Part shown: one piece after another, positions 4,955 through 29,738 of the stretch | How positions within the stretch are numbered: the stretch's first letter is position 1 | Layout: the number at the start of each line of letters is the position of its first letter | Source: Bellilinea caldifistulae | GTDB taxonomy: Bacteria > Chloroflexota > Anaerolineae > Anaerolineales > Anaerolineaceae | Direction: 5' to 3' | Length of the DNA stretch: 32,000 nucleotides | NCBI RefSeq assembly: GCF_001306055.1 | Contig: NZ_LGHJ01000019.1 | Span: 90,001 to 122,000 of the forward strand | Notes under the pieces: generated by a model | What the model was told of the DNA's origin: nothing | The model's input: the letters and a program-made list of their open reading frames with translations, nothing else | The model's database searches: none | Made by a program: the position numbers and the translations under genes

Positions 4955-4956
4955 GG

Positions 4957-5422: not shown

Positions 5423-5459
5423 TTGCACCTCCAAGCGGGGAAATATATAGGACAATCCA

Positions 5460-5539: not shown

Positions 5540-5554
5540 ACAAAATTGAAAGGT

Positions 5555-5950: not shown

Positions 5951-5955
5951 GTTAT

Positions 5956-6261: not shown

Positions 6262-6264
6262 AGG

Positions 6265-9646: not shown

Positions 9647-10408
9647 TTGAAAACTTATCGGGCAGAATTGCACATTCATACGGTTCTTTCCCCATGTGCG
9701 GAGATTGAAATGCTGCCCCCGTTGATTGTCATGGAATGCCTCGAAAAGGGCATTTCCCTGATCGCCATCACCGATCATAACGCAACCGCTAATATTTCTG
9801 CGGTACAGCAGGCTGCCGAGGGAACGGATTTAACTGTGCTGCCCGGTATGGAAGTTCAAACCCGTGAAGAAGTTCACTCGTTATGTCTGTTTGACACTCT
9901 CGAACAGGCTCTTGCCTGGCAAGCAATTGTTGACCGTCACCTGCCGGCAATCCCCAATCGCCCGGATTATTTCGGCGATCAATTGATTGTAGACGCCAAT
10001 GGCGATTTTCTCAAACGGGAGGAACGGTTGCTCCTCACTTCGGTCAATTTGAGTCTGGCAGATGCATTTCATCAGGTAACCCGGTTGGGTGGATTGTTCA
10101 TCCCCGCCCATGTCAACCGCACCGCAAACGGCTTGTTCCCCATCCTGGGAATGCCCCCTGACGATATTCCATTGGAAGTTATGGAAATTTCTCGTCACCT
10201 GAAACCGGCAGAAGCGGTTAAAATATATCCGGCCTTGCATAGCTACTCGTTGATCCAGAGCGGAGATGCTCATCGCCTGGATGAAATTTCAGGGCTGAAC
10301 CAGTTCACTTTACAATCCCCCACTCTTCAAGAAATTCGACTGGCACTGCGCGGCGAACAGGGACGTTCACACCGTATCCTTTCCAGCACAATCCTCGCCG
10401 GGGAATAA
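9647..10408 (+). CDS. PHP-family metal-dependent phosphoesterase
   Basis: N-terminal ELHIHTVLSPCA motif, then AITDHN, then SGDAHRLDE. TTG start 6 nt after GGGAGG. Confidence 0.8.
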   Translation: MKTYRAELHIHTVLSPCAEIEMLPPLIVMECLEKGISLIAITDHNATANISAVQQAAEGTDLTVLPGMEVQTREEVHSLCLFDTLEQALAWQAIVDRHLPAIPNRPDYFGDQLIVDANGDFLKREERLLLTSVNLSLADAFHQVTRLGGLFIPAHVNRTANGLFPILGMPPDDIPLEVMEISRHLKPAEAVKIYPALHSYSLIQSGDAHRLDEISGLNQFTLQSPTLQEIRLALRGEQGRSHRILSSTILAGE

Positions 10409-10550: not shown

Positions 10551-11066
10551 ATGTTAAACACCAAACCCTCCATACCAGCCAATGATCCACTGGCTAACCC
10601 CGAACAAAAAAAACTGATTGATGAGATTCTGGAAAAAAACAAGAACCTCCCCGGTGCAACGATGGTCGTGCTCAACGAGCTTCAAAGCCGGATTGGTTTT
10701 ATTTCCGAAGCCATGCAGCAATATGTTGCCGACAAACTGCATGTACCGGTCAGTTCGGTTCATGGGGTCGTTTCTTTTTATTCTTTCTTCACCACCACCC
10801 CCCGCGGTAAGCACACCATCAAGTTCTGCATGGGTACAGCCTGTTATGTTGGTGGTATGCCTCAGTTGATTGACAAAGCCAAATCCTTGCTGGGGGTCGA
10901 ACCGGGACAAACCACACCCGATGGTGAAATCACCCTCGAAGTATGCCGCTGCGTTGGTGCTTGCAGTCAGGCTCCGGTTGTCGTTGTGGATGACAAAATC
11001 GTTGGGCGTCTCCGCCCTAATAAATTCCCTCAGGTTTTACGTTCCATTCAGGATAGCAAGCAGTGA
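10551..11066 (+). CDS. NuoE/HoxE/HydC-like [2Fe-2S] diaphorase subunit (copy 1)
   Basis: Cluster motifs CMGTAC and CRCVGAC. Context SFYSFF...PRGKHTIKFC. Confidence 0.85.
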   Translation: MLNTKPSIPANDPLANPEQKKLIDEILEKNKNLPGATMVVLNELQSRIGFISEAMQQYVADKLHVPVSSVHGVVSFYSFFTTTPRGKHTIKFCMGTACYVGGMPQLIDKAKSLLGVEPGQTTPDGEITLEVCRCVGACSQAPVVVVDDKIVGRLRPNKFPQVLRSIQDSKQ

Positions 11067-11617
11067 GAGAACTTTCCCTTCACCTGCTGGATATCGCCGA
11101 AAATAGCATCGCAGCCGGCGCGAAAAATATCACCATCACCATCCGGGAGGATACCACCGCCGACCGGTTGTACCTCAGTGTTCAGGATGATGGTAAAGGC
11201 ATGGATGAGGAAATGGTCAAAAAAGTAACCGATCCTTTCGTGACCACCCGCACTACCCGCAAGGTTGGGCTGGGCATTCCTCTCCTGAAAGCCGCCGCCG
11301 AAGCATGCAATGGCTGGCTGAAAATACATTCCAAAGTTGGTGAAGGGACATTGGTTGAGGTGGAATTTCAACGCAGCCACATTGACCGGATGCCGTTGGG
11401 TGATATTGCCGGAACTTTTCTCACTTTGCTGGTTGGAAACCCACAAATTCACTGGGTTTTCCGTTACAGTGTGGATCAGGAGACCTTCGAACTGGACGAT
11501 CAGCAGATTAAACAAGAATTGCAGGACGTCCCCCTTTCCGATCCACTGGTACTTTCTTACTTGCGCGAATTGCTGGAAAGTAATGTTCGATCACTTCAAT
11601 CCATTTCAGTTTATTAA
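11063..11617 (+). CDS. Stand-alone GHKL (histidine-kinase-like) ATPase-domain protein with no DHp or sensor domain
   Basis: N box LLDIAENSIAAGA, G1 box DDGKGMD and G2 box GLGIPLL, followed by about 70 aa of unknown fold. GTGA overlap with the nuoE-like gene. Confidence 0.7.
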   Translation: MRELSLHLLDIAENSIAAGAKNITITIREDTTADRLYLSVQDDGKGMDEEMVKKVTDPFVTTRTTRKVGLGIPLLKAAAEACNGWLKIHSKVGEGTLVEVEFQRSHIDRMPLGDIAGTFLTLLVGNPQIHWVFRYSVDQETFELDDQQIKQELQDVPLSDPLVLSYLRELLESNVRSLQSISVY

Positions 11618-11659
11618 GCGGATGAATTCCTTCATCAATCCGTAGAGAGGAGATTTACC

Positions 11660-12028
11660 ATGCCGACCATCAAAAGTTTAGACGATTTGAAAAGAATCCG
11701 TGAGGAAGCTCTGGAAAAACGCAAAGTAAAAACTGCCTCAGGCCAGGTTCAGGTGATCGTAGGAATGGGTACTTGCGGGATTGCCGCCGGTGCACGCGAC
11801 GCCATGAAAGCCATCCTCGAAACCATCCAGAATGAGAATCTTGAAGGTGTGATTGTCACCCAGACCGGTTGCATCGGCCTGTGCGAGAAAGAACCCATTG
11901 TCCAGGTTGTTGTTGGCGACCAGCCCAAAGTGACCTACGGCAAGGTCTCGCCGGATGTAGCCCGTCAGATCATGAAAGAACACGTCAAGAACGGTAATGT
12001 GCTTAAAGAATACGTAATTCAGGTTTAA
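11660..12028 (+). CDS. Thioredoxin-like [2Fe-2S] ferredoxin (HydD-like)
   Basis: Motifs GMGTCGIAAGA and TGCIGLCEKEP. The SD GAGGAG precedes the ATG. Confidence 0.7.
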   Translation: MPTIKSLDDLKRIREEALEKRKVKTASGQVQVIVGMGTCGIAAGARDAMKAILETIQNENLEGVIVTQTGCIGLCEKEPIVQVVVGDQPKVTYGKVSPDVARQIMKEHVKNGNVLKEYVIQV

Positions 12029-12074
12029 GCCTCTTATCGGTAAACCATTTTTGTAAGGCTAAAGGTTGACAGCT

Positions 12075-13856
12075 ATGAAATACTATCGCTCACATGTTTT
12101 AGTCTGTGTAGACCCGGAATGTCTTCAGAAAGGCGCCCATGAGTTGGTGGATGCCTTGCAGGATGAACTGGTCGCTACCGGCCTGATTGATGAAGTGCAG
12201 GTGCTGGAAACATCCCGCATTGGTGGATGCAGTTTAGGCCCGGAGATGATGGTGTATCCTGAGGGTGTCCATTATGTTGGAGTCACACCCGATGATGTGC
12301 CCTATCTGGTGGAAGAACACTTTCTAAAAGGGCGGGTTGTCAATAAATTCCAGATGCCCACCACCAAAGTTGTAGATGAAGAGCTTGGCGCCCCAACCCA
12401 AAAAGAAGTCCGCATTGTTCTGCGCAATTGCGGAAAAATCGACCCGGAGAATATCGAGGACTACATTGCCGAAGACGGTTATCAGGCGCTTGCCAAAGTC
12501 CTCACCGAAATGACCCCCGAAGAAGTCATTGATACCGTCCTCAAATCCGGTCTGCGCGGCCGCGGTGGGGCCGGTTTTCCGACCGGTAAAAAGTGGCAAT
12601 TTACCCGTCAGGCACCGGGGGATATCAAATATGTGGTGTGCAACGCCGACGAAGGTGACCCTGGCGCTTTCATGAACCGCCGTGTACTCGAAGGTGACCC
12701 TCATTCGGTAATTGAGGGAATGATCATTGCTGCCTACGCAATCGGCGCTCATCAAGGGTATATCTACTGCCGTGCCGAGTATCCGGTTGCGGTATCCACC
12801 CTGAACATTGCCATCCAGCAAGCCCGCAATTTGGGTTTGTTAGGAAAAGATATCCTGGGCAGCGGTTTCGATTTTGACCTTGAAGTACGCATGGGCGCCG
12901 GTGCGTTTGTGTGCGGTGAGGAAACCGCCTTGATCGCCTCCATTGAAGGCCGTCGCGGTGAACCTCGTCCGCGTCCACCTTTCCCGGCTGTACAGGGCTT
13001 GTGGAACAAACCGACCAACGTCAACAACGTTGAAACCTACGCCAACATTCCGCAAATCATTCTTAAGGGCGCGGAATGGTACGCCAGTTACGGCACCGAA
13101 AAAAGCAAAGGCACCAAAACCTTTGCACTGGCCGGTGATCTGAATCACACTGGCCTGATCGAAGTGCCTTTGGGAATCACCCTTCGCGAGATCATTTATG
13201 ATGTTGGCGGCGGCATCAAAGATGGAAAAGCCTTCAAAGCCGTCCAGATTGGCGGGCCGATGGGTGGCTGTGTCCCGGCCGAGTATCTCGATCTTCCGCT
13301 CGATTACGAATCACTTGCTCAGGCTGGCACCATTATGGGCTCCGGCGGTATGATCGTTTTGGATGAAGATACCTGCATGGTAGATGTCGCCCGCTACTTT
13401 ATGGATTTTACCCAAGATGAAAGCTGCGGAAAATGTACTCCCTGCCGGGTTGGTACACGCCGCATTCTGGAAATCCTCACCCGAATTTGCGACGGCAAAG
13501 GGCAGGATGGTGACATCGAATTACTCGAAAATCTTTGTCAGGAAATTCGTACCAACAGCCTGTGTGGATTGGGTCAAGGGGCACCCAACCCGGTAGTCAG
13601 CACTCTGCGCTATTTCCGTGACGAGTACGAAGCCCACATTTACGAAAAACGCTGCCCGGCCAAAGTCTGCCGCGCTTTGATCCGCTATGAAATTCTGCCC
13701 GATGCTTGCACGGGTTGTACGGTTTGCGCCCGCAACTGCCCGGTTAACGCCATCAGCGGTGAGCGCCGCCAGACGCATGTTATTGACCCGGATACCTGCA
13801 TCCGCTGCGGTATTTGTATGCAAGTTTGTAACTTCAACGCAGTGGTCATCGAATAA
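12075..13856 (+). CDS. Long NuoF/HydB-type flavoprotein: N-terminal thioredoxin-like domain, FMN/NAD(H) core, [4Fe-4S] site, and a C-terminal 2x[4Fe-4S] ferredoxin domain
   Basis: Motifs GRGGAGFPTGKKW, CNADEGDPGAF, ESCGKCTPCRVG and NSLCGLG. The C-terminus carries CTGCTVCARNCP and CIRCGICMQVC. The start could be ATG 12075 or TTG 12066. Confidence 0.85.
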   Translation: MKYYRSHVLVCVDPECLQKGAHELVDALQDELVATGLIDEVQVLETSRIGGCSLGPEMMVYPEGVHYVGVTPDDVPYLVEEHFLKGRVVNKFQMPTTKVVDEELGAPTQKEVRIVLRNCGKIDPENIEDYIAEDGYQALAKVLTEMTPEEVIDTVLKSGLRGRGGAGFPTGKKWQFTRQAPGDIKYVVCNADEGDPGAFMNRRVLEGDPHSVIEGMIIAAYAIGAHQGYIYCRAEYPVAVSTLNIAIQQARNLGLLGKDILGSGFDFDLEVRMGAGAFVCGEETALIASIEGRRGEPRPRPPFPAVQGLWNKPTNVNNVETYANIPQIILKGAEWYASYGTEKSKGTKTFALAGDLNHTGLIEVPLGITLREIIYDVGGGIKDGKAFKAVQIGGPMGGCVPAEYLDLPLDYESLAQAGTIMGSGGMIVLDEDTCMVDVARYFMDFTQDESCGKCTPCRVGTRRILEILTRICDGKGQDGDIELLENLCQEIRTNSLCGLGQGAPNPVVSTLRYFRDEYEAHIYEKRCPAKVCRALIRYEILPDACTGCTVCARNCPVNAISGERRQTHVIDPDTCIRCGICMQVCNFNAVVIE

Positions 13857-13904
13857 CCCAGTCCGTCACACTGATCGTCCGAATCAGACCAAAGGAGGAA
13901 AAGT

Positions 13905-14384
13905 ATGAGCGTTGAAACCAAAAGCAGCGAAAAGATACTCGAAGCGGTCAATGCTGCCATCGAAAAGTTCGGTGCAAAGCAAGAGGAATTGATTCCCATC
14001 CTGAACGAGGTAAACCGCCAATTGGGCTACATCCCAACCGAGGCGATGGAAGAAATCAGCCGCCGCTTGAAAGAACCCAAGAGCAGTTTATTTGGGGTAG
14101 CCAGTTTCTACCACATGCTCTCCACCAAACCGCGCGGGCGACACGTTATCCAATTCTGCGAAAGTGCACCTTGCCATGTGGTCGGCGGACGAGAGGTATT
14201 CGAAGCCCTGAAAGAAGAACTGGGTCTGGAGCCCAATGAAACCTCTCCGGACGGAAAATGGACGCTGATCACCACCAGCTGTCTGGGAGTTTGCTCGGTC
14301 GGACCGGTGATTGTGATTGACGAAGACATCTACGGTAATGTGGATGCCCGAAAGGTCCCGGAAATTTTAGCGCGGTATGAGTGA
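13905..14384 (+). CDS. NuoE/HoxE/FdsG-like [2Fe-2S] diaphorase subunit (copy 2)
   Basis: Motifs CESAPC and CLGVCSVGP. The SD AAAGGAGG precedes the ATG. Confidence 0.85.
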   Translation: MSVETKSSEKILEAVNAAIEKFGAKQEELIPILNEVNRQLGYIPTEAMEEISRRLKEPKSSLFGVASFYHMLSTKPRGRHVIQFCESAPCHVVGGREVFEALKEELGLEPNETSPDGKWTLITTSCLGVCSVGPVIVIDEDIYGNVDARKVPEILARYE

Positions 14385-14396
14385 AGGAGGTGCCCG

Positions 14397-16037
14397 ATGA
14401 AAATGACTCGTTCAATGGTACTGGTCTCCAGTGATCCTATCAGCATGCAGCTCGGAGCGCAGGAAGTCTTTCAGGCATTACAGGACCAAATCAAAGCCTT
14501 CGGCCTGGAGGATGAAATCTCTTTAACCATGATTGGTGATGTAGGCCGCCATGATGCCCTTCCGCTGGTCATCGTTTATCCGGAAGCGGTCATCTATGGG
14601 CCGGTTACACCGGATAAAGTCCCTTATCTGGTTGAGGAACACCTTTACAAAGGGCGGATTGCCGAAGAACTGGTTGCCTCGGTTCGCGAATTGAGCGGCA
14701 GAATTGCGTGGTTGCATGCCCGCAAAGGCACCTTACCCGCCGAACAGAGGATTGTCCTCCGGCGGGCCGGCATCATTGACCCGACCAGTATCGAGGACTA
14801 CATCCTCAACGATGGTTACATAGCGCTTGGGAAAGTCCTCACCAGCATGACTCCGGAAGAGGTCATTGAGGAGGTTAAAAAATCCGGTCTGCGCGGGCGG
14901 GGAGGTGCTGGCTTTCCAACCGGCACCAAATGGGGGTTCGTCGCCCGCGAGAAATCCGACAAAAAGTACATCATCTGCAATGCCGATGAGTCCGAACCCG
15001 GCACATTCAAAGATCGCCTGATTTTGGAAGGAGACCCCCACAGCATGATCGAGGCGATGGCCATTGCCGGTTATGCGGTTGGCGCAGATGAAGGCTACAT
15101 TTACGTACGCGGCGAATACCTGCTGGCTCAGGAACGCCTCAAAAAAGCCATCAAGGATGCCCATGAGATGGGCTTTCTGGGAAAGAATATCTTCGGCACC
15201 GATTTCAATTTTGAAATTCACATCCACGCGGGGGCTGGAGCATACATCTGCGGTGAAGAAACCGCACTGATCGAATCCATTGAAGGTAAACGCGGACAAC
15301 CCCGCTCACGTCCGCCCTATCCGACAACCTTTGGTTTGTGGGGTAAACCCACCGTGATTAATAACGTCGAAACGCTGGCTAACATTCCCCCCATCATCAA
15401 CAACGGTGCAGATTGGTATCGCAGTTTCGGCACACCCAGCAGCCCCGGCACCAAAGTGTATACCATCCTGGGAAATGTGAACGTCACCGGTTTAATCGAA
15501 GTTCCCATGGGCATCACCCTCAGAGAAGTCATCGCCATTTACGCCAAGGGCATGAAAAATGGCTCCAACTTCAAACTGGCGCAGACCGGTGGCTCAAGCG
15601 GCTCGATCATTCCCGCATCGCTGCAGGACACCCCAATGGACTTCGACTCCTACGCCAAAGCCGGTGTTTCGCTGGGTTCGGGTGCTTTGTTGATCTGCAA
15701 CGAAGATACCTGCGTGGTAGATCTGGCAAAAGTGCTGTTGAATTTCTTCCGGGTTGAATCCTGCGGAAAATGCAACCCCTGCCGAATCGGTACTCAAAGA
15801 GCCTGGGAAATGCTGGATAAAATCTCGAAAGGTCAGGCTTCCCTGAGCGACCTCGACAAATTGGCAGAACTTTCCGAAAATCTGTACATGTTATCCAACT
15901 GCGGTTTAGGGCAAACCGCCGGCACCCCCTTGCGCGATATTTTGAATTACTTCCGCGCCGAAGTGGAGGCTCATATCCGCCTGAAGATTTGCCCCGCCGG
16001 AGTTTGCAAAATGGAGGAGATGATCCCCCAACCCTGA
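14397..16037 (+). CDS. Short NuoF/HoxF/FdsB-type flavoprotein: cysteine-free N-terminal thioredoxin-like domain and no C-terminal ferredoxin domain
   Basis: Motifs GRGGAGFPTGTKW, CNADESEPGTF, ESCGKCNPCRIG and SNCGLGQ. The N-terminal roughly 100 aa align with copy 1 (VPYLVEEH..KGR) but contain no Cys. Confidence 0.85.
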   Translation: MKMTRSMVLVSSDPISMQLGAQEVFQALQDQIKAFGLEDEISLTMIGDVGRHDALPLVIVYPEAVIYGPVTPDKVPYLVEEHLYKGRIAEELVASVRELSGRIAWLHARKGTLPAEQRIVLRRAGIIDPTSIEDYILNDGYIALGKVLTSMTPEEVIEEVKKSGLRGRGGAGFPTGTKWGFVAREKSDKKYIICNADESEPGTFKDRLILEGDPHSMIEAMAIAGYAVGADEGYIYVRGEYLLAQERLKKAIKDAHEMGFLGKNIFGTDFNFEIHIHAGAGAYICGEETALIESIEGKRGQPRSRPPYPTTFGLWGKPTVINNVETLANIPPIINNGADWYRSFGTPSSPGTKVYTILGNVNVTGLIEVPMGITLREVIAIYAKGMKNGSNFKLAQTGGSSGSIIPASLQDTPMDFDSYAKAGVSLGSGALLICNEDTCVVDLAKVLLNFFRVESCGKCNPCRIGTQRAWEMLDKISKGQASLSDLDKLAELSENLYMLSNCGLGQTAGTPLRDILNYFRAEVEAHIRLKICPAGVCKMEEMIPQP

Positions 16038-16064
16038 ATCTTACTTGTTTGGAGATTTGATATC

Positions 16065-16943
16065 ATGGCCGTAGAAAACAACGTAATTTCCATTGACGCT
16101 CTTATGCCTGCCGAAATGGCCCAGAAAGCAGAAGCCATTGGCGTGAAAAAAGCCAATCTGGCTTTCTGGCCCCTGTTTGCTTTATCCATCCTGGCCGGCG
16201 CATTTATCGGATTAGGTGCAATTTTTGCCACCACGGTCAGCGCTGGTTCAGCAGCCTTGCCCTATGGGGTTGCCCGTTTGTTGACCGGTCTGGTGTTTAC
16301 GCTTGGCCTTATTCTGGTCATTGTCGGTGGTGCGGAGCTGTTCACCGGCAACAACCTGATCATCATGGCTTTCACCAATGGCAAAGTCACCCTAAAAGGG
16401 CTTATACGCAACTGGGTGATCGTCTATTTCGGTAATTTTGTTGGTTCGGTTGCCACGGCCGTACTCATGTTTTTCACCCGCCAATACACTTTTGGAAACG
16501 GTTCGATTGGCTTGGCTGCGCTGAATATCGCCAATAGCAAGGTCAACCTTGAATTTGTGCAGGCCATTGCCCTCGGTATTATGTGCAATGCGATGGTCTG
16601 TATGGCAGTTTGGCTGTGTTACTCGGCGCGTTCCACCACGGATAAAATCCTTGCCATCATTCCGCCCATCAGCGGCTTTGTGGCATGTGGTTTTGAACAC
16701 TCGATTGCCAATATGTACTTTATCCCGTTGGGATTGTTCATCAAGCAATTCGCCCCGGCTTCTTTTTGGGAATCGAAAGCCCTGGTGGATGCCGGCGTAA
16801 CCATCGAAAAATTTACCAATCTAACCTGGCAGGGTTTTTTCGTCAACAATCTCTTGCCGGTCACCATCGGTAACATCATTGGCGGGGCAGTACTGGTTGG
16901 ACTGGTCTACTGGTTCATTTTTCTGAAAAAATGGAGTAAGTAA
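16065..16943 (+). CDS. focA: Formate/nitrite transporter family channel
   Basis: FNT signatures LGLILVIVGGAELFTGN and CGFEHSIANMYF. About six hydrophobic helices. Confidence 0.85.
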   Translation: MAVENNVISIDALMPAEMAQKAEAIGVKKANLAFWPLFALSILAGAFIGLGAIFATTVSAGSAALPYGVARLLTGLVFTLGLILVIVGGAELFTGNNLIIMAFTNGKVTLKGLIRNWVIVYFGNFVGSVATAVLMFFTRQYTFGNGSIGLAALNIANSKVNLEFVQAIALGIMCNAMVCMAVWLCYSARSTTDKILAIIPPISGFVACGFEHSIANMYFIPLGLFIKQFAPASFWESKALVDAGVTIEKFTNLTWQGFFVNNLLPVTIGNIIGGAVLVGLVYWFIFLKKWSK

Positions 16944-16973
16944 GCCACTTAAGCCTTGGAAGGACTGGAGATT

Positions 16974-19739
16974 ATGGTTCAAATCAAAATTAATGGCATA
17001 GAATTGGATGTTCCAAAGGGAACAACCGTTTTAGAGGCTGCCGAAAAAGCGGGGATTACCATCCCAACCCTTTGCTATCATAAAGACCTGTCTCCCTATG
17101 GGGGCTGCCGTCTGTGCATTGTTGAACTCAAGGGCGGACGAGTGCCGATGACCTCTTGTACCCTGCCGGTAGAAAACGGCATGGAAGTGCAAACCGAAAC
17201 GGAAAGCCTGCGAAAATCTCGCCGCACCATTCTGGAACTGCTCCTCTCCACCTACTACGATTCCGGTTACGCCCAAAAAGACGAACACCCGAACGAATTG
17301 GAATACTGGGCAACCGCCTACGGTTTGGACATGAAAGCCTTCATGGCTGAAAAACCCCGCTATGAGGTCAACAGCGATCCCAATCCATTCGTTTGGGTTG
17401 ATTTAAATAAATGTATTCTGTGCGGCCGTTGCGTCCGCGCCTGCGCGGAGGTTCAGGGACGCTTTGTCTGGGGGCTTTCCGAACGTGGTTATGAGGCCCG
17501 CATCGTAGCCGGCCTGGACGAACCCATGCTGGAAGCGCGTTGTGAATCGTGCGGCGCATGTGTGGCTTACTGCCCCACGGGCGCGCTGGATAACAAGATG
17601 TCGGTTGGACTCGGCGCGCCGGATAAGGTTGTACGCACCACCTGTTCTTACTGCGGGGTTGGCTGTCAGTTTGACTTGAATGTTAAGGATGGCAAAATTA
17701 TCCGTGTGACCTCGACGCCGGATGCGCCGGTCAACGGTATGCGATTGTGCGTCAAGGGCCGCTATGGCTATGATTATGTTCATCATCCAGACCGCTTGAC
17801 CCAGCCCATGGTGCGAGAGTACCTGCTGAAAGGCGAACCTCGCAAAGACAAGAAGAACCGCGGTGAATGGGTCAAGGTGGATTGGGATACCGCCCTGAAC
17901 ATTGTGGCCGGTAAGCTCAATCAAATCCGCACTGAAAGCGGCGCTGACAGCATTGGGGTGTTGAGTTCGGCCAAATGCACCAATGAAGAAAACTACTTGA
18001 TGAATAAGTTTGCGCGGCAGGTACTGGGCACCAACAATATTGACCATTGCGCCCGTCTCTGCCACGCCAGTACCGTAGCCGGTTTGGCGATTTCCTACGG
18101 TTCTGGGGCCATGTCCAACACTATGCAGGATATTGTTGAAAATGCTCAGGCGATTTTCGTCACCGGCTCGAATACCACCGAACAGCACCCGGTCTTCGGT
18201 ACAATGATTCGGCAGGCGGTACTGAAACGCGGCGTCAAATTGATTGTGGCTGACCCCCGCCGGATTGATCTGGTGGACTTTGCCACCCTTCACCTGCAAC
18301 AAAGACCCGGTACCGACATCGCCCTGCTCAACGGCTTGATGAACATTATCCTCCAAAAAGGCTGGGCGGATGAACAATTCATTGCCGAGCGCACCGAAGG
18401 ATTTGACGAATTCAAAGCCAACCTGCAAAATTACCCGCCGGAAAAAGTTTCTGAAATTACCGGCGTCCCTCTCGAGCAGTTGTATCAGGCTGCCGAGATC
18501 ATGGGAACCTGCAAACCCATGGCCGTTTTCTGGGCAATGGGCATCACTCAGCACATTGTCGGCGTTCAGAATGTCCTAACCCTGGCCAATTTGCAGATGC
18601 TGTTGGGTAACATGGGTGTGCCGGGCGGCGGCGTGAACCCACTGCGCGGTCAGAATAATGTACAGGGCGCCTGCGATATGGGCGGGCTGCCAAATGTGTA
18701 TCCGGGCTATCAACCGGTCGCCTCCGATGCTGCCCGCGGAAAGTTTGAAACCGCTTGGGGCGTATCTCTTTCTCCCAAACCCGGCATGACCGTTACCGAA
18801 ATGATCCCTGCAGATGGAGAAGGTAAAATCCGAGCGCTTTACATCCTCGGCGAAAATCCGGTCATGACCGATCCGGACGTCAATCACGTCCGCCATTGTT
18901 TGGAAGAACTGGAATTCCTGGTTTTGCAGGAAATCTTCCCTTCCGAAACTTCGGCATACGCCGATGTGCTGCTGCCCGGTGTAACCTTCGCTGAAAAAGA
19001 AGGCACTTTTACGAATACCGAACGGCGGATTCAGCGCGTCCGTAAAGCCGTTGAGCCGGTTGGTCAATCCCGCCCCGATTGGGAGATCATCAGCGACCTG
19101 GCGCGGCGGATGATCGCCGTCAGCAACCGTAAACCCGCTGAAGCCCCACAATCCGGGTGGAATTACGGCTCACCTGCCGAGATCATGGATGAAGTTGCCA
19201 GCATCACACCATCCTACGCCGGCGTCAGCTATGAACGTCTGGATCGTGGTGAAAATCTTCACTGGCCAGTCAAGGGATACGATCACCCCGGCACGCCAAT
19301 TTTGCATATTGGTCAATTTACCCGTGGTAAAGGCCTCTTTTCACCCACCACTGATGTGCCGCCTGCCGAAAAGCCGGATGCCGAATTCCCAATGCTGATG
19401 AACACCGGGCGTGTTCTGTATCACTGGCACGGCGGCGAAATGACCCGTCGCGCCAAAGGGCTGATGGAGGTTTATCCCAAACCACTCATCGAATTGAACC
19501 CCGAAGATGCCTTGCGGATTGGTATTAACGGCAATCGAATGGTCAAAATCACCTCACGGCGTGGCAGCATTGTTTCAGAAGCCTGGGTAACCAATCGTGT
19601 TCCTGAAGGTATGGTTTACGCCAATTTTCACTTCCCGGAATCCAATGCCAACGAGTTGACCATCGCCGCGCTCGATCCAATTGCAAAAATCCCGGAATTC
19701 AAGATCACAGCTGTAAAGGTAGAATTAGCGGATGAATAA
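16974..19739 (+). CDS. fdhA: Formate dehydrogenase alpha subunit, Cys type: N-terminal [2Fe-2S] plus 2x[4Fe-4S] module fused to a bis-MGD catalytic domain
   Basis: Motifs CYHKDLSPYGGCRLC, CILCGRCVRAC, CESCGACVAYCP and CSYCGVGC. Active-site HCARLCHAS (Cys-His, no in-frame TGA). LRGQNNVQGACDMG carries the catalytic Arg context. Start moved to ATG 16974. Confidence 0.85.
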   Translation: MVQIKINGIELDVPKGTTVLEAAEKAGITIPTLCYHKDLSPYGGCRLCIVELKGGRVPMTSCTLPVENGMEVQTETESLRKSRRTILELLLSTYYDSGYAQKDEHPNELEYWATAYGLDMKAFMAEKPRYEVNSDPNPFVWVDLNKCILCGRCVRACAEVQGRFVWGLSERGYEARIVAGLDEPMLEARCESCGACVAYCPTGALDNKMSVGLGAPDKVVRTTCSYCGVGCQFDLNVKDGKIIRVTSTPDAPVNGMRLCVKGRYGYDYVHHPDRLTQPMVREYLLKGEPRKDKKNRGEWVKVDWDTALNIVAGKLNQIRTESGADSIGVLSSAKCTNEENYLMNKFARQVLGTNNIDHCARLCHASTVAGLAISYGSGAMSNTMQDIVENAQAIFVTGSNTTEQHPVFGTMIRQAVLKRGVKLIVADPRRIDLVDFATLHLQQRPGTDIALLNGLMNIILQKGWADEQFIAERTEGFDEFKANLQNYPPEKVSEITGVPLEQLYQAAEIMGTCKPMAVFWAMGITQHIVGVQNVLTLANLQMLLGNMGVPGGGVNPLRGQNNVQGACDMGGLPNVYPGYQPVASDAARGKFETAWGVSLSPKPGMTVTEMIPADGEGKIRALYILGENPVMTDPDVNHVRHCLEELEFLVLQEIFPSETSAYADVLLPGVTFAEKEGTFTNTERRIQRVRKAVEPVGQSRPDWEIISDLARRMIAVSNRKPAEAPQSGWNYGSPAEIMDEVASITPSYAGVSYERLDRGENLHWPVKGYDHPGTPILHIGQFTRGKGLFSPTTDVPPAEKPDAEFPMLMNTGRVLYHWHGGEMTRRAKGLMEVYPKPLIELNPEDALRIGINGNRMVKITSRRGSIVSEAWVTNRVPEGMVYANFHFPESNANELTIAALDPIAKIPEFKITAVKVELADE

Positions 19740-19822
19740 GCTATGAGAATGTGTGGTTTAACGGTAGCGGTATTTACAAGCAAAGAACCATTCATAAATC
19801 ATTGAGAAGGAGAGTGTCTGGA

Positions 19823-21781
19823 ATGATTACGCTAACCATTGACGGTCAACAGATTCAAGTTCCGGAAGGCACCACAGTGCTCAATGCCGCCCGAAAAGCC
19901 GGAATTCACATTCCAACCTTATGCGATCACCCCCACCTGAAACCTTACGGTGGATGCCGGTTGTGCATGGTTGAAATAGAGGGTTTCCGCACCTTGCAGG
20001 CTTCCTGCACCATACCGGCAACCAACAACATGGTCGTTCGCACCACCTCAGAGCAGATTCGGAAAGCCAGAAAGTTTGTCCTCACCTTGATATTCAGTGA
20101 GCGCAACCACTTTTGCCCCTACTGCCAGGTCAGCGGCAGCGATTGTGAATTACAAAATGCCGCCTACGGCGAGGGAATGACTCACTGGCCATTGCAGCCC
20201 AACTGGCAGCCTTATCCGGTGGATGCTTCCCACCCCTACTTCATCCTGGAACACAATCGCTGCATCCTGTGCCGGCGTTGCATCCGGGCCTGTGCGGAAC
20301 TGGTCGGTGCAAACACGCTGGGCGTTGAAGAACGTGGTGCAAAGACCTTTGTGATTGCGGATCTGAATGTCCCGTTAGGAGAAAGTTCCTGTGTCTCTTG
20401 TGGAATGTGCGTCCAGGTCTGCCCTACGGGCGCGTTGATTGACCGTCGCAGCGCCTACCGCGGCCAAAACACCACCGTAGATCATCAGCAGACGCTGTGT
20501 TTGGGTTGTTCGGTTGGTTGCGGTGTGGATATCCTCACCCGTGATCAACAATTAATTCGGATTGACGGCAATTGGGACGCCCCGGTCAATCAAGGGGTCA
20601 CCTGCAAAGTCGGTCGCTTCTATCCGGCTTTTGATGACCGCGAACGATTGAAGACACCCCTGCTCCGTAAAAACGGCAGCCTGCAGCCCGTTACCTGGGA
20701 AGAAGCACTGGAAGCCGCAGCGGAGAAGATTAAGACTGCTTCCGGCAATGGTATCGCTGCGGTTGCTTCTACCCGCCTGCCGCTTGAAAGCCTGGTCATC
20801 TTCCGCCAGTTATTCGCCGAACATTTGCGCAGCGCGGTGGTCACATCTACTGATGAAGGAAGCCGCACCGCAATCCTCTCCAAATGGGCTGAAAAACTGG
20901 GGAAGCCATTTGAAGGCAAGATTGATCAGGTCCACGAAGCCGGAGCATTCCTGGTCATGGGGGCCGATCTCGTCAATGAGCATGAGGTTTTGGGATTCTT
21001 CATCCGCAGACGCTTCCCCGAAGGGATTAAGTTGATTGTGGTGGATGAAGATCAAAATCACCTCGGTGATCTGGCGCATTGTGCCTTGATCCCTCAAAAG
21101 AAAACCCAACCTGCACTCCTGAAGGGGTTGATCGCCGCAGTAGCCAAACTCGGACAGAATCAAGTCCCGTTTAGCGGTCAACCGGATGAAGAAGTGCAAA
21201 AAGCCAGCAGTACTTGCGGTGTGGCTTCGGATCTGCTCCTGGAAGCAGCCTTCCAGTTGACCAACAGCGAGAAACCGATCATCATCTACGATCCAGCTGC
21301 CATAAACGATGATGTGATGGACTTGCTGATCACCCTGAGCCAGACAACTGGGGCCGCAATGATCAGCATCAAAGGCGGAGCCAATGCTCTGGGGGCTGCT
21401 CAACTGGATCTGGATAAAACTCTCAAATTAAACGGCCAGCAGGTGGCTTTCATTGCCATCGGCGATGAAGAACCCAAAGAAAGACTGATTCAGCAGCTCG
21501 AAAAGTGCTCCAGCATCATCGTACAGGCCAGTTACCACTCTCGCCTAACCGCAATGGCCGATGTTGTCTTTCCGGTAGTCAACTGGCTGGAACAGGACGG
21601 GCATTTCATCAACCTCGATGGACGCTTACAAACCGCTGCAAAAGTCCTTCAACCGGCTGAGACCGTTTGGACAAATGAAGCGGTTCTATCTGCGCTTGCA
21701 GATAAACTGGGTACATCCGTAGAGAGTGACTGGAAAAACGTGATTTCGATGCGGCCCTCTCCAGTCAGCATCGCCATCTGA
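19823..21781 (+). CDS. NuoG/HoxU-like Fe-S subunit with a truncated, apparently non-catalytic molybdopterin-oxidoreductase-like C-terminal domain
   Basis: The N-terminus is collinear with FdhA (CDHPHLKPYGGCRLC, CILCRRCIRAC, CVSCGMCVQVCP, CLGCSVGC) and carries an extra HFCPYCQVSGSDC motif. The FdhA active-site position reads VVTSTDEGSRTA, so there is no Cys/Sec-His. The C-terminal cap domain is absent. Confidence 0.7.
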   Translation: MITLTIDGQQIQVPEGTTVLNAARKAGIHIPTLCDHPHLKPYGGCRLCMVEIEGFRTLQASCTIPATNNMVVRTTSEQIRKARKFVLTLIFSERNHFCPYCQVSGSDCELQNAAYGEGMTHWPLQPNWQPYPVDASHPYFILEHNRCILCRRCIRACAELVGANTLGVEERGAKTFVIADLNVPLGESSCVSCGMCVQVCPTGALIDRRSAYRGQNTTVDHQQTLCLGCSVGCGVDILTRDQQLIRIDGNWDAPVNQGVTCKVGRFYPAFDDRERLKTPLLRKNGSLQPVTWEEALEAAAEKIKTASGNGIAAVASTRLPLESLVIFRQLFAEHLRSAVVTSTDEGSRTAILSKWAEKLGKPFEGKIDQVHEAGAFLVMGADLVNEHEVLGFFIRRRFPEGIKLIVVDEDQNHLGDLAHCALIPQKKTQPALLKGLIAAVAKLGQNQVPFSGQPDEEVQKASSTCGVASDLLLEAAFQLTNSEKPIIIYDPAAINDDVMDLLITLSQTTGAAMISIKGGANALGAAQLDLDKTLKLNGQQVAFIAIGDEEPKERLIQQLEKCSSIIVQASYHSRLTAMADVVFPVVNWLEQDGHFINLDGRLQTAAKVLQPAETVWTNEAVLSALADKLGTSVESDWKNVISMRPSPVSIAI

Positions 21782-21817
21782 GATTTATTGGAAAGGATTT
21801 TGGAAGGAGGATCACTA

Positions 21818-22360
21818 ATGAGCAAACCGAAAGTAGCTTCTGATTGGATGGCAGGTTGTGCTGGCTGTCACATGTCCTTATTGGATATGGATGAACGTAT
21901 TGTTAAGATTGCTGAGCTGGTAGACTTGCGTTCCACACCAATTACCGACCTGAAACACCCCGATGAGACCGGCGTTGACGTAGGCATTCTGGAAGGTGGC
22001 ATTAACAACACCAGCAACGAAGAAGTCGCTAAAATGATGCGCAAACGCTGCAAGATTCTGGTTGCATTGGGTGATTGTGCCGTTTTTGGTGGTGTTCCGG
22101 CGATGCGCAACTTCTTCACCATTGAAGAGACCCTGCGTCGCGCCTACGTCGAAACGGAAAGTACCGATGCAGAGGGAAAAATTCCCGATGATCCTGAACT
22201 GGCTCGTCCGACCCGCGTGCGAGCCGTCCATGAGGTCGTACCGGTGGACATTTTTGTGCCGGGTTGCCCGCCAGATGCAGATACCATTTTCTATGTGCTT
22301 TCAGAACTGGCACAGGGCCGCAAGCCGGTTTTGAAAGACGACAAACTGCACTGGCACTAA
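21818..22360 (+). CDS. hoxY: [NiFe] hydrogenase small subunit, short cytoplasmic (HoxY/group 3) type
   Basis: Motifs GCAGCHMS, ALGDCAVFGG and VPGCPP. No Tat signal. The SD GGAAGGAGG precedes ATG 21818. Confidence 0.8.
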   Translation: MSKPKVASDWMAGCAGCHMSLLDMDERIVKIAELVDLRSTPITDLKHPDETGVDVGILEGGINNTSNEEVAKMMRKRCKILVALGDCAVFGGVPAMRNFFTIEETLRRAYVETESTDAEGKIPDDPELARPTRVRAVHEVVPVDIFVPGCPPDADTIFYVLSELAQGRKPVLKDDKLHWH

Positions 22361-22375
22361 GAGGAGGTGTTCACA

Positions 22376-23800
22376 ATGACTACTCAGAAAATCACAATTG
22401 AACCAGTGACCCGTATTGAAGGCCACGCCAAAGTAACCATCCATCTAAACCCGGATGGAAATGTGGAACGGGCTTACCTGCACATCAACGAATTTCGCGG
22501 CTTCGAAAAGTTCTGCGAAGGGCGCATGGTCTTTGAAATGCCCACCATCACCCCTCGCATTTGTGGAATTTGCCCGGTTTCGCACCATTTGGCAGCTGCA
22601 AAGGCGGGGGATGAAGTTTATGGCTCTCCCCCTCCGCGCCCGGCTCAATTGTTGCGGGAATTGATGCACATGGGGCAGATCATTCAAAGTCACGGGATGC
22701 ACTTCTTCGAACTTGCCGGTCCGGATTTGCTCCTTGGCTTTGATGCTGACCCGGCTATACGCAATGTGGTGGGTTTGATTCAGACCAATCCCGAACTGGC
22801 TTTGAAAGCCGTCAATTTACGTAAATACGGCCAGGAGATCATCCACATCCTTGGCGGGCGGCGGATTCATCCCGTTTTTGCCGTCCCCGGCGGCGTCAAC
22901 AAAGCCTTGAAGACTGCCGAAAGAGATACCATTTTGGCCGGACTGGATGAAGTCATCTCCACCATCCAAATGGGGATTCAAATCTTCAAGGGCTGGGCTG
23001 AGAAAAACCGCGAAGACATTGATAAATTCGCCGTTTTCCCAACCGGCTATCTTGGCCTGGTCAAACCCGGTAACACCCTCGAATTGTACGATGGAGAAGT
23101 CCGCCTGATTGATGCGAGTGGAAAACAATTGGAGTTATTTGACGGCCGTAAGTATCTGGATTACATCGCCGAACACGTCGAATCGTGGTCTTACTTGAAA
23201 TTCCCCTACTACAAGAAGATGGGCTACCCGGCCGGCGTTTACCGTGTAGGGCCATTAGGCCGACTGAACGCCAGTGATCGAATAGCCACCCCGCTGGCAG
23301 ATGCCGAATTGCGCGAGTTCAAAACCCTCAACAACGGAAAACCGGTTGAAAACACCCTGTATTACCACTACGCCCGGCTGATCGAAGCCCTCTATGCCGC
23401 CGAGAATGTCCGGCTCTTATGTGAAGACCCGGATATCCTCAGCACCGACATCCTCAACACCCGCCAGAACTTCAAAGGCGAAGGGGTTGGTGTCATCGAA
23501 GCGCCGCGTGGGACCTTGTGGCATCATTATTGGGCAAAACCCAACGGCCAGCTCGAGCGGGTCAACATGATTGTAGCCACGGGCAACAATAACTGGGCAA
23601 TGAGCCATGCCGTGGATAGCGTTGCCAAGACCTACATCAACGGTCAACAAATCCGCGAAGGCCTGCTTAACCGCGTAGAAGCCGCCGTGCGAGCCTATGA
23701 TCCTTGCCTTTCCTGCTCCACTCACGCCGTCGGACAGATGCCCATCATGGTGGAGATGCTGGATCATCAAGGTAACCTCGTGAAGACCATCTCAAGGTAG
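22376..23800 (+). CDS. hoxH: [NiFe] hydrogenase large subunit (HoxH/group 3 type)
   Basis: N-terminal Ni-binding motif [11 protein letters not shown] and C-terminal DPCLSCSTH, followed by a cleavable extension. Begins VTRIEGH. Confidence 0.9.
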
Positions 23801-23801
23801 T

Positions 23802-24347
23802 ATGCAAACCGATTCAGCGTACCCTCCGCAGCAGGTTCCAGCACAAACTTCGCAGCCGGAACCTGCTGCTCAAAGAATCCTCTTACTGGGATACGGTAAC
23901 CTCGACCGGCAGGACGATGGAATTGCCTGGCATATCCTCAGAAGAGTAGCCGAAAACCTGGATGCTCAATTACCAGCCGTACCTGAACAATACCAGTATG
24001 AAGTTTCTCCTACCATTACAATCGGTTTTGCACTTCATCTGATCCCTGAACATTCCGAATGGCTGAGTCAGGTGGAACGAGTACTCTTTCTGGATGCTCA
24101 CACCGGTACCATCCCGCAGGAAATTTGCTTTACCCCCCTGAATGCCCGCTTTGAGCCATCACCGTTCACCCATCATTTGACCCCGGCGACCTGTCTGGCA
24201 TTATGTGCCGCTTTGTACCAAAAAGTACCACAGGGTGCCTTATTGTCGGTGCGGGGCTATGAATTCAATTTCAGTCAATCCCTCTCTCCGGCTGCCAGCC
24301 AACTGCTTGAACCCGCAGTTAAACAGGTAATGGACTGGCTTGGTTGA
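23802..24347 (+). CDS. hoxW: Hydrogenase maturation endopeptidase (HoxW/HycI family) with a 25-aa Pro/Gln-rich N-terminal extension
   Basis: Motifs LLLGYGNLDRQDDGIAWH and FLDAH. The start lies 1 nt after the hoxH stop. Confidence 0.75.
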   Translation: MQTDSAYPPQQVPAQTSQPEPAAQRILLLGYGNLDRQDDGIAWHILRRVAENLDAQLPAVPEQYQYEVSPTITIGFALHLIPEHSEWLSQVERVLFLDAHTGTIPQEICFTPLNARFEPSPFTHHLTPATCLALCAALYQKVPQGALLSVRGYEFNFSQSLSPAASQLLEPAVKQVMDWLG

Positions 24348-24384: not shown

Positions 24385-24957
24385 ATGATGACGCAGGTCA
24401 CTTTAATGAATATGGTATTCGGTGTTACAAAAGTAGATAACTACAAGACCGATTTGTACCCCATGCAAACATCCAGCCTGATTGAAACTCTGCGGACAAT
24501 TCCCTGGTTCCTGGATCTTAAACCCCAGCAAATTGAAGCGCTGGCTGGGATTTCCTCCATTGTACATTACAAAGAAGGCACAGCCATCTTTTGTGAAGGT
24601 GATCGAGTGGATAATATCTACATCATCCTCTCCGGCCAAATTGGCGTGGATATGGCTGTGCCTTCCCGTGGAATTGTGCGCATCACCACCGCTGAACCAT
24701 TGGACATCATCGGCTGGTCCAAATTGACCCCGGTTGTGCGACAACGCACAGCCTCCACAATTGCCCTGAAGGATTCAACCCTGCTTGTCCTGAATGGAGA
24801 TGAATTAAATCGGCTTTGCGAAGAAGACCCTCGCCTTGGATATGTCATTATGCGGCGAGTTGCCAATGTGGTTGCCAGTAACCTCCTCACGATTAAACTG
24901 CAATTGATGGACTTGATCCTTCAATCATCCAGCGAAACGGACGTTAAAACCAGGTAA
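24385..24957 (+). CDS. Stand-alone cyclic-nucleotide-binding (Crp-type sensor) domain protein with no DNA-binding domain; start uncertain (24385 or 24463)
   Basis: Motif FCEGDRVDNIYIILSGQIGV and the phosphate-binding-cassette-like RQRTAS. The protein is too short to hold an HTH. Confidence 0.6.
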   Translation: MMTQVTLMNMVFGVTKVDNYKTDLYPMQTSSLIETLRTIPWFLDLKPQQIEALAGISSIVHYKEGTAIFCEGDRVDNIYIILSGQIGVDMAVPSRGIVRITTAEPLDIIGWSKLTPVVRQRTASTIALKDSTLLVLNGDELNRLCEEDPRLGYVIMRRVANVVASNLLTIKLQLMDLILQSSSETDVKTR

Positions 24958-25013: not shown

Positions 25014-25373
25014 ATGCACGAGCTAGCCGTAACCGAATCCGTGTTGGAGATCGCTCTTCGCCACGCCGGTCAGGTCAATGCTGACCGGGTAACCGATATT
25101 TATCTGGTGATTGGAAGATTGTCCAGTATCGTGGATGATTCGGTGCAATTTTACTGGAACATCATCGCTGAAAATACACTTTGTCAGAATGCAAACCTGC
25201 ATTTCAAACGTGTTCCAGCCCGCTTGAGATGCGTTGATTGTCAATTGGAATTCGAAGTTCAGGATTCTCTCTCTCCCTGCCCCCAATGCGGTGGCTATCA
25301 CATAAATGTCATTGGCGGCGAGGAGTTTTATGTCGAATCAATCATTGTCGAAAAAGAAGGAGCAACTGTATGA
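25014..25373 (+). CDS. hypA: Hydrogenase nickel-insertion protein HypA
   Basis: N-terminal MHELAV (the MHE Ni site) and zinc motifs CVDC...CPQCG. Confidence 0.9.
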   Translation: MHELAVTESVLEIALRHAGQVNADRVTDIYLVIGRLSSIVDDSVQFYWNIIAENTLCQNANLHFKRVPARLRCVDCQLEFEVQDSLSPCPQCGGYHINVIGGEEFYVESIIVEKEGATV

Positions 25374-28350: not shown

Positions 28351-28351
28351 A

Positions 28352-28609: not shown

Positions 28610-28620
28610 GAACGAATCCA

Positions 28621-29733: not shown

Positions 29734-29738
29734 CGACC

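Follow-up and report, generated by a model that had tools for sequence, protein, structure and literature searches.

The closest described relative of the system considered here is the NiFe-HydABCSL hydrogenase of Acetomicrobium mobile (NiFe-Bfu, type 3; Feng et al. 2022), for which the simultaneous H2-dependent reduction of NAD+ and ferredoxin has been demonstrated (PMC8880783). Its operon contains, besides the genes of HydABCSL, those of HydD, HydP and HisK, the latter being absent from the purified enzyme, and the locus numbers Anamo_1675-1678 and 1681 imply the gene order C-HisK-D-B-A-S-L-P (PMC8880783). In the A. mobile dimer, the cofactors of the two protomers are more than 40 Å apart. 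In a survey of Bfu enzymes published in 2022, the small subunit of type 3 enzymes passes electrons in via a His-ligated cluster of HydA; NiFe-Bfu is listed there only for Synergistetes and Halorhabdus, and the sole dual formate dehydrogenase (FDH)-hydrogenase function listed is with [FeFe] enzymes. Here we describe an operon related to that of A. mobile in a stretch of 32,000 nucleotides from Bellilinea caldifistulae (contig NZ_LGHJ01000019.1; the whole stretch is called the window), which appears to encode two different NADH-reactive flavoprotein heads and, nested among the hydrogenase genes, a formate channel and an FDH.

The operon occupies positions 10551-24347, all its genes being on the + strand (Table 1; coordinates are positions in the window). 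The gene order is identical to C-HisK-D-B-A-S-L-P of A. mobile, except for an interruption between B and A by a second NuoE/NuoF-like pair (HydC2 and HydB2, abbreviated C2B2 or B2C2, the first pair being B1C1) and by focA-fdhA. The reading that we prefer, with a probability of roughly 0.6, is that of an A. mobile-type operon plus C2B2 plus focA-fdhA, which would yield separate ABC-type enzymes with shared NADH heads. The more general and interesting finding is the two-headed architecture, conserved across Anaerolineae. The nested FDH is an elaboration, specific to one lineage, of a link between hydrogenase and formate genes that recurs.

The gene content and order given in a preliminary description of this DNA were borne out by the listing of open reading frames (ORFs) and by Pfam/NCBIfam scans, which gave twelve tightly packed genes. 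The overlap of the first two was found as described, with the TGA stop of HydC1 and the GTG start of the HATPase gene sharing GTGA. The gaps of about 50 nt or less stated there hold for the longest ORFs (-4 to 48 nt), but not for FdhA-HydA: the start of HydA is 19823 according to the public annotation of the same genome (GCA_001050215.2, contig DF967971.1, with FdhA as GAP11147.1) and to a GAAGGAG ribosome-binding site before the ATG, so that this gap is 83 nt. The starts of HydB1, FdhA, HydS and HydL lie 3-10 codons downstream of the longest-ORF starts. The layout was confirmed, as far as each record extends, in the organism's own genome record (L082; loci are cited by L numbers) and in a sequencing-run assembly with identical FdhA (L083), and it is also present from HydB1 onward in the assemblies L081 (HydL 95% identical) and L084 (91%). 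Since two independent relatives and the own genome record share it, the nesting is no assembly artefact, and a chimera as its source was ruled out. Promoter- and terminator-like motifs, considered as possible signs of a division of the cluster, are no commoner inside it than in shuffled sequence, and are thus uninformative on splitting. Nothing speaks against a single predicted transcription unit.

As judged by sequence, the hydrogenase belongs to the NiFe-HydABCSL family and has all the features that can be checked in this way. HydL gives 570 bits to subunit 7T2R_D of the A. mobile cryo-EM structure versus 428 to MvhA and 421 to HoxH, and its metal-binding motifs are present, the N-terminal one of the RxCGxCxxxH type and the C-terminal one as DPCLSCSTH (DPCxxCxxH). 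The cytoplasmic NAD/ferredoxin-linked hydrogenase of the preliminary description can thus be specified as one of the A. mobile HydABCSL type, and the class of HydL, for which a check had been proposed there, is not that of the sensory clade. HydS identities are 71-96% in Anaerolineae loci and 46-67% in more distant ones. The protein labelled earlier as NuoG/HoxU-like is indeed NuoG-like but not a HoxU: with 652 aa and a degenerate molybdopterin domain, it corresponds to HydA. It matches PF13510, PF10588, Fer4/Fer4_7, PF04879 and, weakly, PF00384, PF10588 standing for the His-ligated cluster motif, and its 314-bit alignment with 7T2R_A spans residues 26-658. It thus has the make-up of a HydA, with a [2Fe-2S], a His-ligated cluster, 2x[4Fe-4S] and a C-terminal cluster, but without an H-cluster. 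HydB1 (593-596 aa) has the C-terminal 2x[4Fe-4S] domain and all the Cys/His ligands checked (N-terminal, B2-site and C-terminal 2x[4Fe-4S]). By analogy with the characterised A. mobile orthologue, B1C1-HydASL would be bifurcating. HydD is kept in nearly all related loci, even in one without C1 and B1 (L003). As a separate observation, a subset of HydB1 proteins (L004:3374, L005:3456, L007:3437, L023, L025, L041 and L043-L046) has lost two of the three checked Cys of the N-terminal [2Fe-2S] cluster (B5), which, in otherwise complete proteins, agrees with a view of B5 as a dead-end cluster that can be dispensed with.

HydB2 differs from HydB1, with which it is 53% identical, at precisely the positions used to tell bifurcating from non-bifurcating beta subunits. 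It has 546 aa and lacks the C-terminal 2x[4Fe-4S] domain (clusters B3/B4); it retains the ligands of the N3-type [4Fe-4S] cluster as well as the Cys3His site (cluster B2 of Feng et al.), and in the alignment with HydB1 its N-terminal thioredoxin-like domain is without the B5 cluster, the Cys ligands being replaced by Ser/Ser/His. This pattern of retained and lost ligands, including the absence of the B3/B4 domain and of the N-terminal Cys, is uniform in 42/42 orthologues. What is left by sequence is FMN, the N3-type cluster and the Cys3His site, with no clusters leading to ferredoxin. The residue criteria applied were the three sites of beta subunits defined by Losey et al. 2020, according to which non-bifurcating subunits have Thr/Ser plus Lys/Ser/Ala at the NADH site (T. 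maritima HydB 232/234), Tyr at FMN-site 367 and no GGPSG in the SLBB domain (PMC7311640). At the NADH site, HydB1 shows the bifurcating GAFM (58/60 B1 proteins, the other two with GAFA) and HydB2 the non-bifurcating GTFK (42/42); at the FMN site, the motifs are PPFP in HydB1 (53/60) and PPYP in HydB2 (39/42); in the SLBB domain, HydB1 has GGPMG, a GGPxG variant of GGPSG, and HydB2 has GGSSG, the GGPxG pattern being present in 60/60 B1 and absent from 42/42 B2. There is also a precedent in S. wolfei, where an enzyme with a HydB devoid of B3/B4 is NADH-dependent and ferredoxin-independent (summarised in PMC11406978 and PMC9304861). On account of the residue criteria, the missing clusters and this precedent, B2C2 is read as a non-bifurcating, NADH-only head and B1C1 as a bifurcating one.

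The descent of HydB2 is a different matter from its type. It gives 621 bits to A. mobile HydB (7T2R_B) versus 393 to FdsB and 307 to HoxF, and in a neighbour-joining tree, which took in Bfu-type B subunits from the surveyed loci only, the B2 proteins group together as one monophyletic clade, to which none of the B1-type ones belongs, those adjacent to FDH included. Orthology with HoxF/FdsB was therefore ruled out. The earlier proposal of one bifurcation-type and one simple flavoprotein is supported by the ligands and residue motifs, but the kinship with HoxF/FdsB that it implied is not, HydB2 being a paralogue of Bfu-type HydB. A HMMER search with HydB2 against 1.84 billion representatives gave best matches of about 50% identity, mostly to proteins of about 600 aa or longer, and no placement outside Anaerolineae.

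The position of C2B2 was followed in a synteny survey of 80 species-representative loci centred on HydL homologues, onto which the window proteins were mapped; counts of flavoprotein pairs were limited to the 58 loci that extend 8 kb or more upstream. The layout with both flavoproteins, C1-HisK-HydD-B1-C2-B2-HydA-HydS-HydL-HydP, was present in 36/58 loci. A single B1C1, as in A. mobile, was found in 15/58, mostly from Planctomycetota, Verrucomicrobiota and deeper Anaerolineae, C2B2 was the only pair in 2/58 (L003 and L064), and 5/58 had HydASL without adjacent flavoprotein genes. None of the 36 loci with B1 and B2 had an FDH between B2 and HydA, and focA was there in L002 alone. At L003:4778-12014 (HydL 85%) the order is HydD-C2-B2-HydA-HydS-HydL-HydP, with histidyl-tRNA synthetase upstream on the opposite strand as in the window; the upstream regulators, C1, HisK and B1 are missing. 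This locus seems to be a natural version of the operon with the non-bifurcating head only, in which C1, HisK and B1 were lost and C2B2 was kept. Because of the 36 loci without FDH at this site and of the loci with C2B2 only, C2B2 is best taken as an ancestral constituent that the Anaerolineae hydrogenase operon has conserved, not as an FDH-specific diaphorase. From the variants with C2B2 only we infer also that B2C2 docks to HydA.

These data bear directly on the possibility that C2-B2-FocA-FdhA is a self-contained, FdsGBA-like NAD-dependent FDH, with C2B2 dedicated to FdhA and the hydrogenase relying on B1C1 only. The order C2-B2-(FocA)-FdhA does mimic FdsG-B-A, the NADH- and FMN-site residues of HydB2 are complex-I/FdsB-like, the best solved match of FdhA is the NAD-dependent FdsA of Rhodobacter capsulatus (6TG9_A; full-length, 768 bits), and FdhA without a BC pair of its own occurs mostly in operons that have C2B2. 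However, C2B2 lies directly upstream of HydA in the 36 loci with no FDH between, is kept in the near relatives L085 and L047, which have no FDH there, and is the sole BC pair in L003 and L064; L033 holds C2B2 plus a separate BC pair beside FdhA, and HydB2 is nearer to Bfu HydB than to FdsB. A dedicated FDH of this kind is thus improbable. The four-gene cassette NuoE2-NuoF2-FocA-FdhA implied by the preliminary description was rejected on the strength of the 80-locus map, as C2B2 is conserved in operons without any FDH and the insert consists of focA-fdhA only.

Other arrangements of the flavoprotein genes were observed in the survey. HydA-HydS-HydL(-HydP) with no adjoining flavoprotein genes was seen at L011:7415-12033 and in L006, L013, L022 and L063, including an Anaerolinea thermophila-like genome, with the upstream genes on the opposite strand; in these cases the heads must be encoded elsewhere or be absent. 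Many distant NiFe-HydASL loci from Planctomycetota, Verrucomicrobiota and some Anaerolineae contain a long HydB-type subunit of 1010-1105 aa (L053:4517-7624, L016:7229-10546, L050, L051, L054-L057, L059, L061, L062, L070, L074 and L079). In the two of them studied with Pfam, L053 and L016, a GltD-like module (Fer4_20 plus Pyr_redox_2) takes the place of the C-terminal ferredoxin domain, pointing to an additional NAD(P)H site as part of the fused flavoprotein. At L062:5917-7191 (Chloroflexota), a GltD-fused bifurcating-type B is followed by a second NuoE and a 424-aa complex-I-like NuoF (KPPYP), and then by HydA, so that the two-headed arrangement may have had an independent origin there.

The focA-fdhA insert is patchy among near relatives and not graded by HydL identity. 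B2-FocA-FdhA-HydA was found in the window, L081 and L084; B2-FocA-HydA in L002 (HydL 90%); and B2-HydA, with the same flanks as the window, in L085 and L047 (HydL 88-89%). From this distribution, the insert appears to consist of focA-fdhA only, to be confined to a Bellilinea sub-lineage and to be recent. The linkage of formate genes to the operon is broader: FdhA and/or FocA accompany it in 18-19/80 loci, in most cases after HydP. FdhA alone, in some loci joined by FdhD, follows HydP in L004, L009, L017, L023 and L024, with no BC pair of its own in L004, L009, L023 and L024 (L017 is the same downstream, its upstream part being too short to judge); FocA alone is with the operon in L007, L010, L012 and L014, besides L002 at the B2-HydA site; and FdhA is preceded by its own C and a bifurcating-type B in L033, L016, L049 and L050. 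The synteny is accordingly less singular than had been assumed, since such linkage is recurrent in Anaerolineae and a contig of a Lost City Chloroflexi metagenome-assembled genome was already drawn with focA-fdhA-nuoG-hoxF-hoxE, with no further analysis (PMC7117926). The addition of FdhA without its own BC pair in L004, L009, L023 and L024 suggests selection for co-expression with the heads of the operon. As to side observations on these genes, at L009:14953-17755 FdhA and FdhD after HydP are followed on the opposite strand by a MobA-like gene and a Mutator-family transposase, a neighbourhood that hints at a possible route of FDH modules into these operons. The catalytic codon of FdhA is TGC (Cys) in the window (18060-18062), L009 and L033, and TGA (selenocysteine) in the orthologues L004:16437, L017:5077, L023:13965 and L024:13075.

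Concerning FdhA itself, the catalytic Cys-His is in HCARLCHAS and the conserved Arg in RGQNNVQG. It has a NuoG-like N-terminus and the motifs of a [2Fe-2S], 2x[4Fe-4S] and the Mo-proximal cluster, without the His-ligated cluster motif seen in HydA, a set that fits the type 1 'A' subunit of the Bfu scheme. As paralogous A-type subunits, FdhA and HydA both possess a complete NuoG-like N-terminus of their own, and the same docking site on a BC head is therefore expected for both. The pair directly upstream of FdhA is C2B2, yet it is orthologous to the pair kept in FDH-less hydrogenase operons. FdhA must use B1C1 or B2C2, unless another pair is encoded elsewhere; the gene order favours B2C2, and B1C1 is favoured, by analogy, by L033 and similar loci, where FdhA has partners of the bifurcating type.

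The two possibilities raised in the preliminary description were a single supercomplex and two enzymes sharing subunits. In the former, FdhA and HydASL would be wired via the two NuoEF modules into one soluble machine for direct formate/CO2-H2 interconversion, a [NiFe] analogue of the hydrogen-dependent CO2 reductase (HDCR) or of Hyt/Fdh. All the genes, separated by short gaps, seem to form one transcription unit, soluble complexes of FDH with [FeFe] hydrogenase are known (C. autoethanogenum FdhFeFe and C. beijerinckii CbFdh/Hyd), and FDH genes are repeatedly linked to the hydrogenase operon in Anaerolineae. Nevertheless, FdhA and HydA should compete for one site on the BC head, no stand-alone polyferredoxin connector of the HycB/HytD type was found among the twelve products in Pfam scans, the protomer cofactors of A. 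mobile are too far apart to favour such wiring, and focA-fdhA is apparently a recent indel, with the FDH placed elsewhere or with its own BC pair in relatives. The supercomplex is consequently held to be very doubtful. The expected common docking site, the missing connector and the A. mobile protomer distance favour separate ABC-type complexes, and two enzymes sharing subunits remains the most plausible of the original proposals.

A looser connection has also to be weighed, in which FdhA would work with ferredoxin alone or with a flavoprotein pair from elsewhere, sharing only a promoter with the hydrogenase, and C2B2 would be a head for the hydrogenase only, in an alternative or a regulatory role. 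In favour of this, the insertion is both recent and variable, and the loci with FocA alone (L002, L007, L010, L012 and L014) argue for a regulatory rather than a structural linkage of formate handling and H2 metabolism. On the other hand, FdhA keeps the full NuoG-like N-terminal Fe-S domain, which in solved relatives docks a NuoEF-type head, and FdhA without its own BC pair has been placed at two different operon sites in different lineages. It seems reasonable to regard mere co-regulation as rather unlikely.

In the preferred reading of separate enzymes with shared heads, there would be two catalytic arms, HydA-HydS-HydL acting on H2 and FdhA acting on formate/CO2, together with two NADH heads, B1C1 (bifurcating) and B2C2 (non-bifurcating), assembled into separate ABC-type complexes. 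The bifurcating hydrogenase would couple NADH plus reduced ferredoxin to H2, and the B2C2-headed form would tie NADH alone to H2, possibly also to formate, when partners hold H2/formate low. FocA would transport formate across the membrane, as an exit or entry route, and formate and H2 would be connected via shared NAD(H)/ferredoxin pools and common regulation, with no direct wire. B. caldifistulae is tabulated as a producer of both formate and H2 (PMC5481317), which fits enzymes that get rid of NADH and reduced ferredoxin by making H2 or formate, FocA being the route for the latter. The formation of H2 or formate from NADH alone is feasible only at low product levels (PMC13556243), which would explain why both heads are kept. 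A more far-reaching form is a tentative possibility, clearly below even odds: a mix-and-match kit in which the interchangeable heads B1C1 and B2C2 combine with the arms HydASL and FdhA into up to four enzymes, switching between ferredoxin-coupled and NADH-only operation with the H2/formate levels of the partners and, at the extreme, forming mixed hetero-oligomers as a soluble [NiFe] formate hydrogenlyase.

Several points weigh against the shared-head reading. The Cys3His site kept by HydB2 was assigned by Feng et al. to the low-potential branch, so that some unusual function of HydB2 is conceivable, and the free [2Fe-2S] ferredoxin HydD could conceivably replace the domains missing from HydB2. 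Operons with C2B2 only might use a B1C1 encoded elsewhere in their genomes, and further NuoEF pairs elsewhere in the B. caldifistulae genome might serve FdhA.

The genes around the operon are included in Table 1. The set DRTGG, CBS-CBS-HATPase, DRTGG and PHP, putatively regulatory, is upstream of the operon in most related loci and in nearly all those from Anaerolineae; similar DRTGG/CBS-HATPase/PHP sets precede [FeFe] HydABC operons in Thermoanaerobacterales. The order of the cNMP-binding and Hyp genes downstream is common to L081, L082, L084 and L085. In many loci the gene between HydP and HypA codes for a cNMP-binding protein of 183-190 aa with no recognisable DNA-binding domain, and in other species focA/fdhA are inserted directly upstream of it. 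Positions 1-6300 of the window, upstream of the histidyl-tRNA synthetase gene, hold mostly small genes on the - strand, several of them ORFs without Pfam match, and include a ParA/MinD-like ATPase and a HTH/MerR-like protein.

Table 1. Features of the window, with positions, strand and the evidence for each assignment.
Feature	Position	Strand	Evidence or remark
ParA/MinD-like ATPase	3293-4060		
HTH/MerR-like protein	5555-5950		
DRTGG protein	7862-8239	+	Pfam
CBS-CBS-HATPase protein	8258-9268	+	Pfam
DRTGG protein	9265-9603	+	Pfam
PHP-domain protein	9647-10408	+	Pfam; 142-nt gap to HydC1
HydC1, NuoE-like [2Fe-2S] subunit, presumed partner of HydB1	10551-11066	+	PF01257 154.8 bits; four Cys ligands; position as A. 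mobile HydC (PMC8880783)
HisK, HATPase_c-only accessory/regulatory protein	11063-11617	+	PF02518 62.2 bits
HydD, small thioredoxin-like [2Fe-2S] ferredoxin	11660-12028	+	PF01257 weak (22.2 bits); NF041612 45.8 bits
HydB1, bifurcating-type NuoF-like flavoprotein, ligands of clusters B1-B5	12075-13856	+	870 bits to 7T2R_B
HydC2, second NuoE-like [2Fe-2S] subunit	13905-14384	+	PF01257 158 bits; four Cys conserved
HydB2, predicted non-bifurcating-type NuoF-like flavoprotein	14397-16037	+	Alignment with HydB1, ligand table, residue motifs
FocA, formate channel, first inserted gene	16065-16943	+	PF01226 270 bits; TIGR04060 297.8 bits (cutoff 290.1)
FdhA, Cys-type Mo/W-bis-pyranopterin guanine dinucleotide FDH alpha subunit, second inserted gene	16974-19739	+	TIGR01591 833 bits (cutoff 666)
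HydA, NuoG-like Fe-S subunit, degenerate molybdopterin domain, link of HydSL to flavoprotein	19823-21781	+	314 bits to 7T2R_A
HydS, [NiFe] hydrogenase small subunit	21818-22360	+	PF01058 107 bits
HydL, [NiFe] hydrogenase large subunit	22376-23800	+	570 bits to 7T2R_D
HydP, large-subunit C-terminal maturation protease	23802-24347	+	TIGR00072 50.5 bits (cutoff 47.45); no Pfam match
cNMP-binding protein	24406-24957	+	Pfam
HypA, B, F, C, D, E maturation genes	25014-30803	+	Pfam

Until now, bifurcating NuoF-type flavoproteins have been compared with non-bifurcating ones from other organisms only. Dozens of Anaerolineae species encode both types side by side, beside the same catalytic subunits, and if both heads do serve one [NiFe] arm, plus an FDH arm in Bellilinea, this would be a natural experiment on what makes a Bfu enzyme bifurcate. 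The hosts are abundant fermenters of digesters and sediments that pass H2 and formate to methanogens, and under the same condition the system would show how fermenters tune the release of H2/formate to the activity of their partners. The routine labels 'HoxEFUYH' and 'NuoF' used in metabolic reconstructions mask a likely ferredoxin-coupled enzyme. B. caldifistulae is in culture, so the question is directly testable.

In the open-access literature, no description of tandem bifurcating and non-bifurcating heads was found; for an operon joining [NiFe] hydrogenase and FDH in Anaerolineae, the search yielded nothing beyond generic 'HoxEFUHY' annotations and the figure with the Lost City contig (PMC7117926). 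The exact architecture had not been recognised as a characterised system in the preliminary description either, and no paper describing this layout was found. An identity with HoxEFUYH, HDCR/Hyt-Fdh or formate hydrogenlyase was considered and rejected, as the defining features are missing from the locus.

Like HoxEFUYH (group 3d), the usual annotation label of these Anaerolineae genes, the predicted enzyme is cytoplasmic and NAD-linked and has NuoE/F/G-like diaphorase subunits. It differs in that HydA has 652 aa versus about 240 aa in HoxU, which (5XF9_B) aligns only to HydA residues 27-234, in that HydB1 has extra N- and C-terminal cluster domains, and in the higher score of HydL against the A. 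mobile subunit than against HoxH (570 versus 421 bits). With E. coli formate hydrogenlyase (FdhF plus group 4 Hyc), the locus has in common that genes for formate channel, FDH and [NiFe] hydrogenase are linked, and formate <-> H2 + CO2 is possible in both. The E. coli system, however, is membrane-bound, of group 4 and without NuoEF modules, while the locus is without membrane hydrogenase subunits and the intermediates are probably NAD(H)/ferredoxin: Pfam scans of 7862-30803 gave no NuoH/L-like integral membrane subunits and no group 4 large subunit, and HydL groups with 7T2R_D, MvhA and HoxH.

The FDH arm resembles FdsGBA(D) of R. capsulatus and Cupriavidus necator (PDB 6TG9 and 6VW7) in the Cys-type active site, the NuoG-like N-terminus, the full-length alignment with FdsA and the order C2-B2-...-FdhA, comparable to FdsG-B-A. 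The differences are the absence from the locus of an FdsD gene and, it seems, of dedicated FdsG/FdsB, the absence from FdhA of the His-ligated cluster motif, the apparent origin of HydB2 as a Bfu-derived paralogue and the FocA gene between HydB2 and FdhA. HDCR (A. woodii and T. kivui), HytA-E/FdhA (C. autoethanogenum) and CbFdh/Hyd (C. beijerinckii) are alike in that an FDH and a soluble hydrogenase are co-encoded, and in Hyt/Fdh both share a bifurcating BC core. At this locus, by contrast, the hydrogenase is of the [NiFe] type, there are no small polyferredoxin connectors, there are two BC pairs, and the FDH has a NuoG-like A subunit separate from that of the hydrogenase.

As to the heads, HydB2 is like the non-bifurcating NADH-dependent beta subunits in the T..K pair at the NADH site, the FMN-site Tyr and the lack of GGPSG and of the C-terminal 2x[4Fe-4S] domain. 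It differs from them in that its partner would be the [NiFe] HydASL and/or FdhA, not an [FeFe] HydA, in being co-encoded with a bifurcating-type HydB1 in one operon, and in keeping the cluster-less thioredoxin-like N-terminal domain and the Cys3His site. The system as a whole comes closest to A. mobile NiFe-HydABCSL (PDB 7T2R/7T30), with which it shares orthologous HydL, S, A, B and C, the accessory HisK, HydD and HydP, the gene order, and, in HydB1, HydC1 and HydA, all the ligand motifs of clusters B1-B5, C1 and the A clusters. What sets it apart is its host, from Anaerolineae, and the splitting of the operon between HydB and HydA by C2B2 and focA-fdhA.

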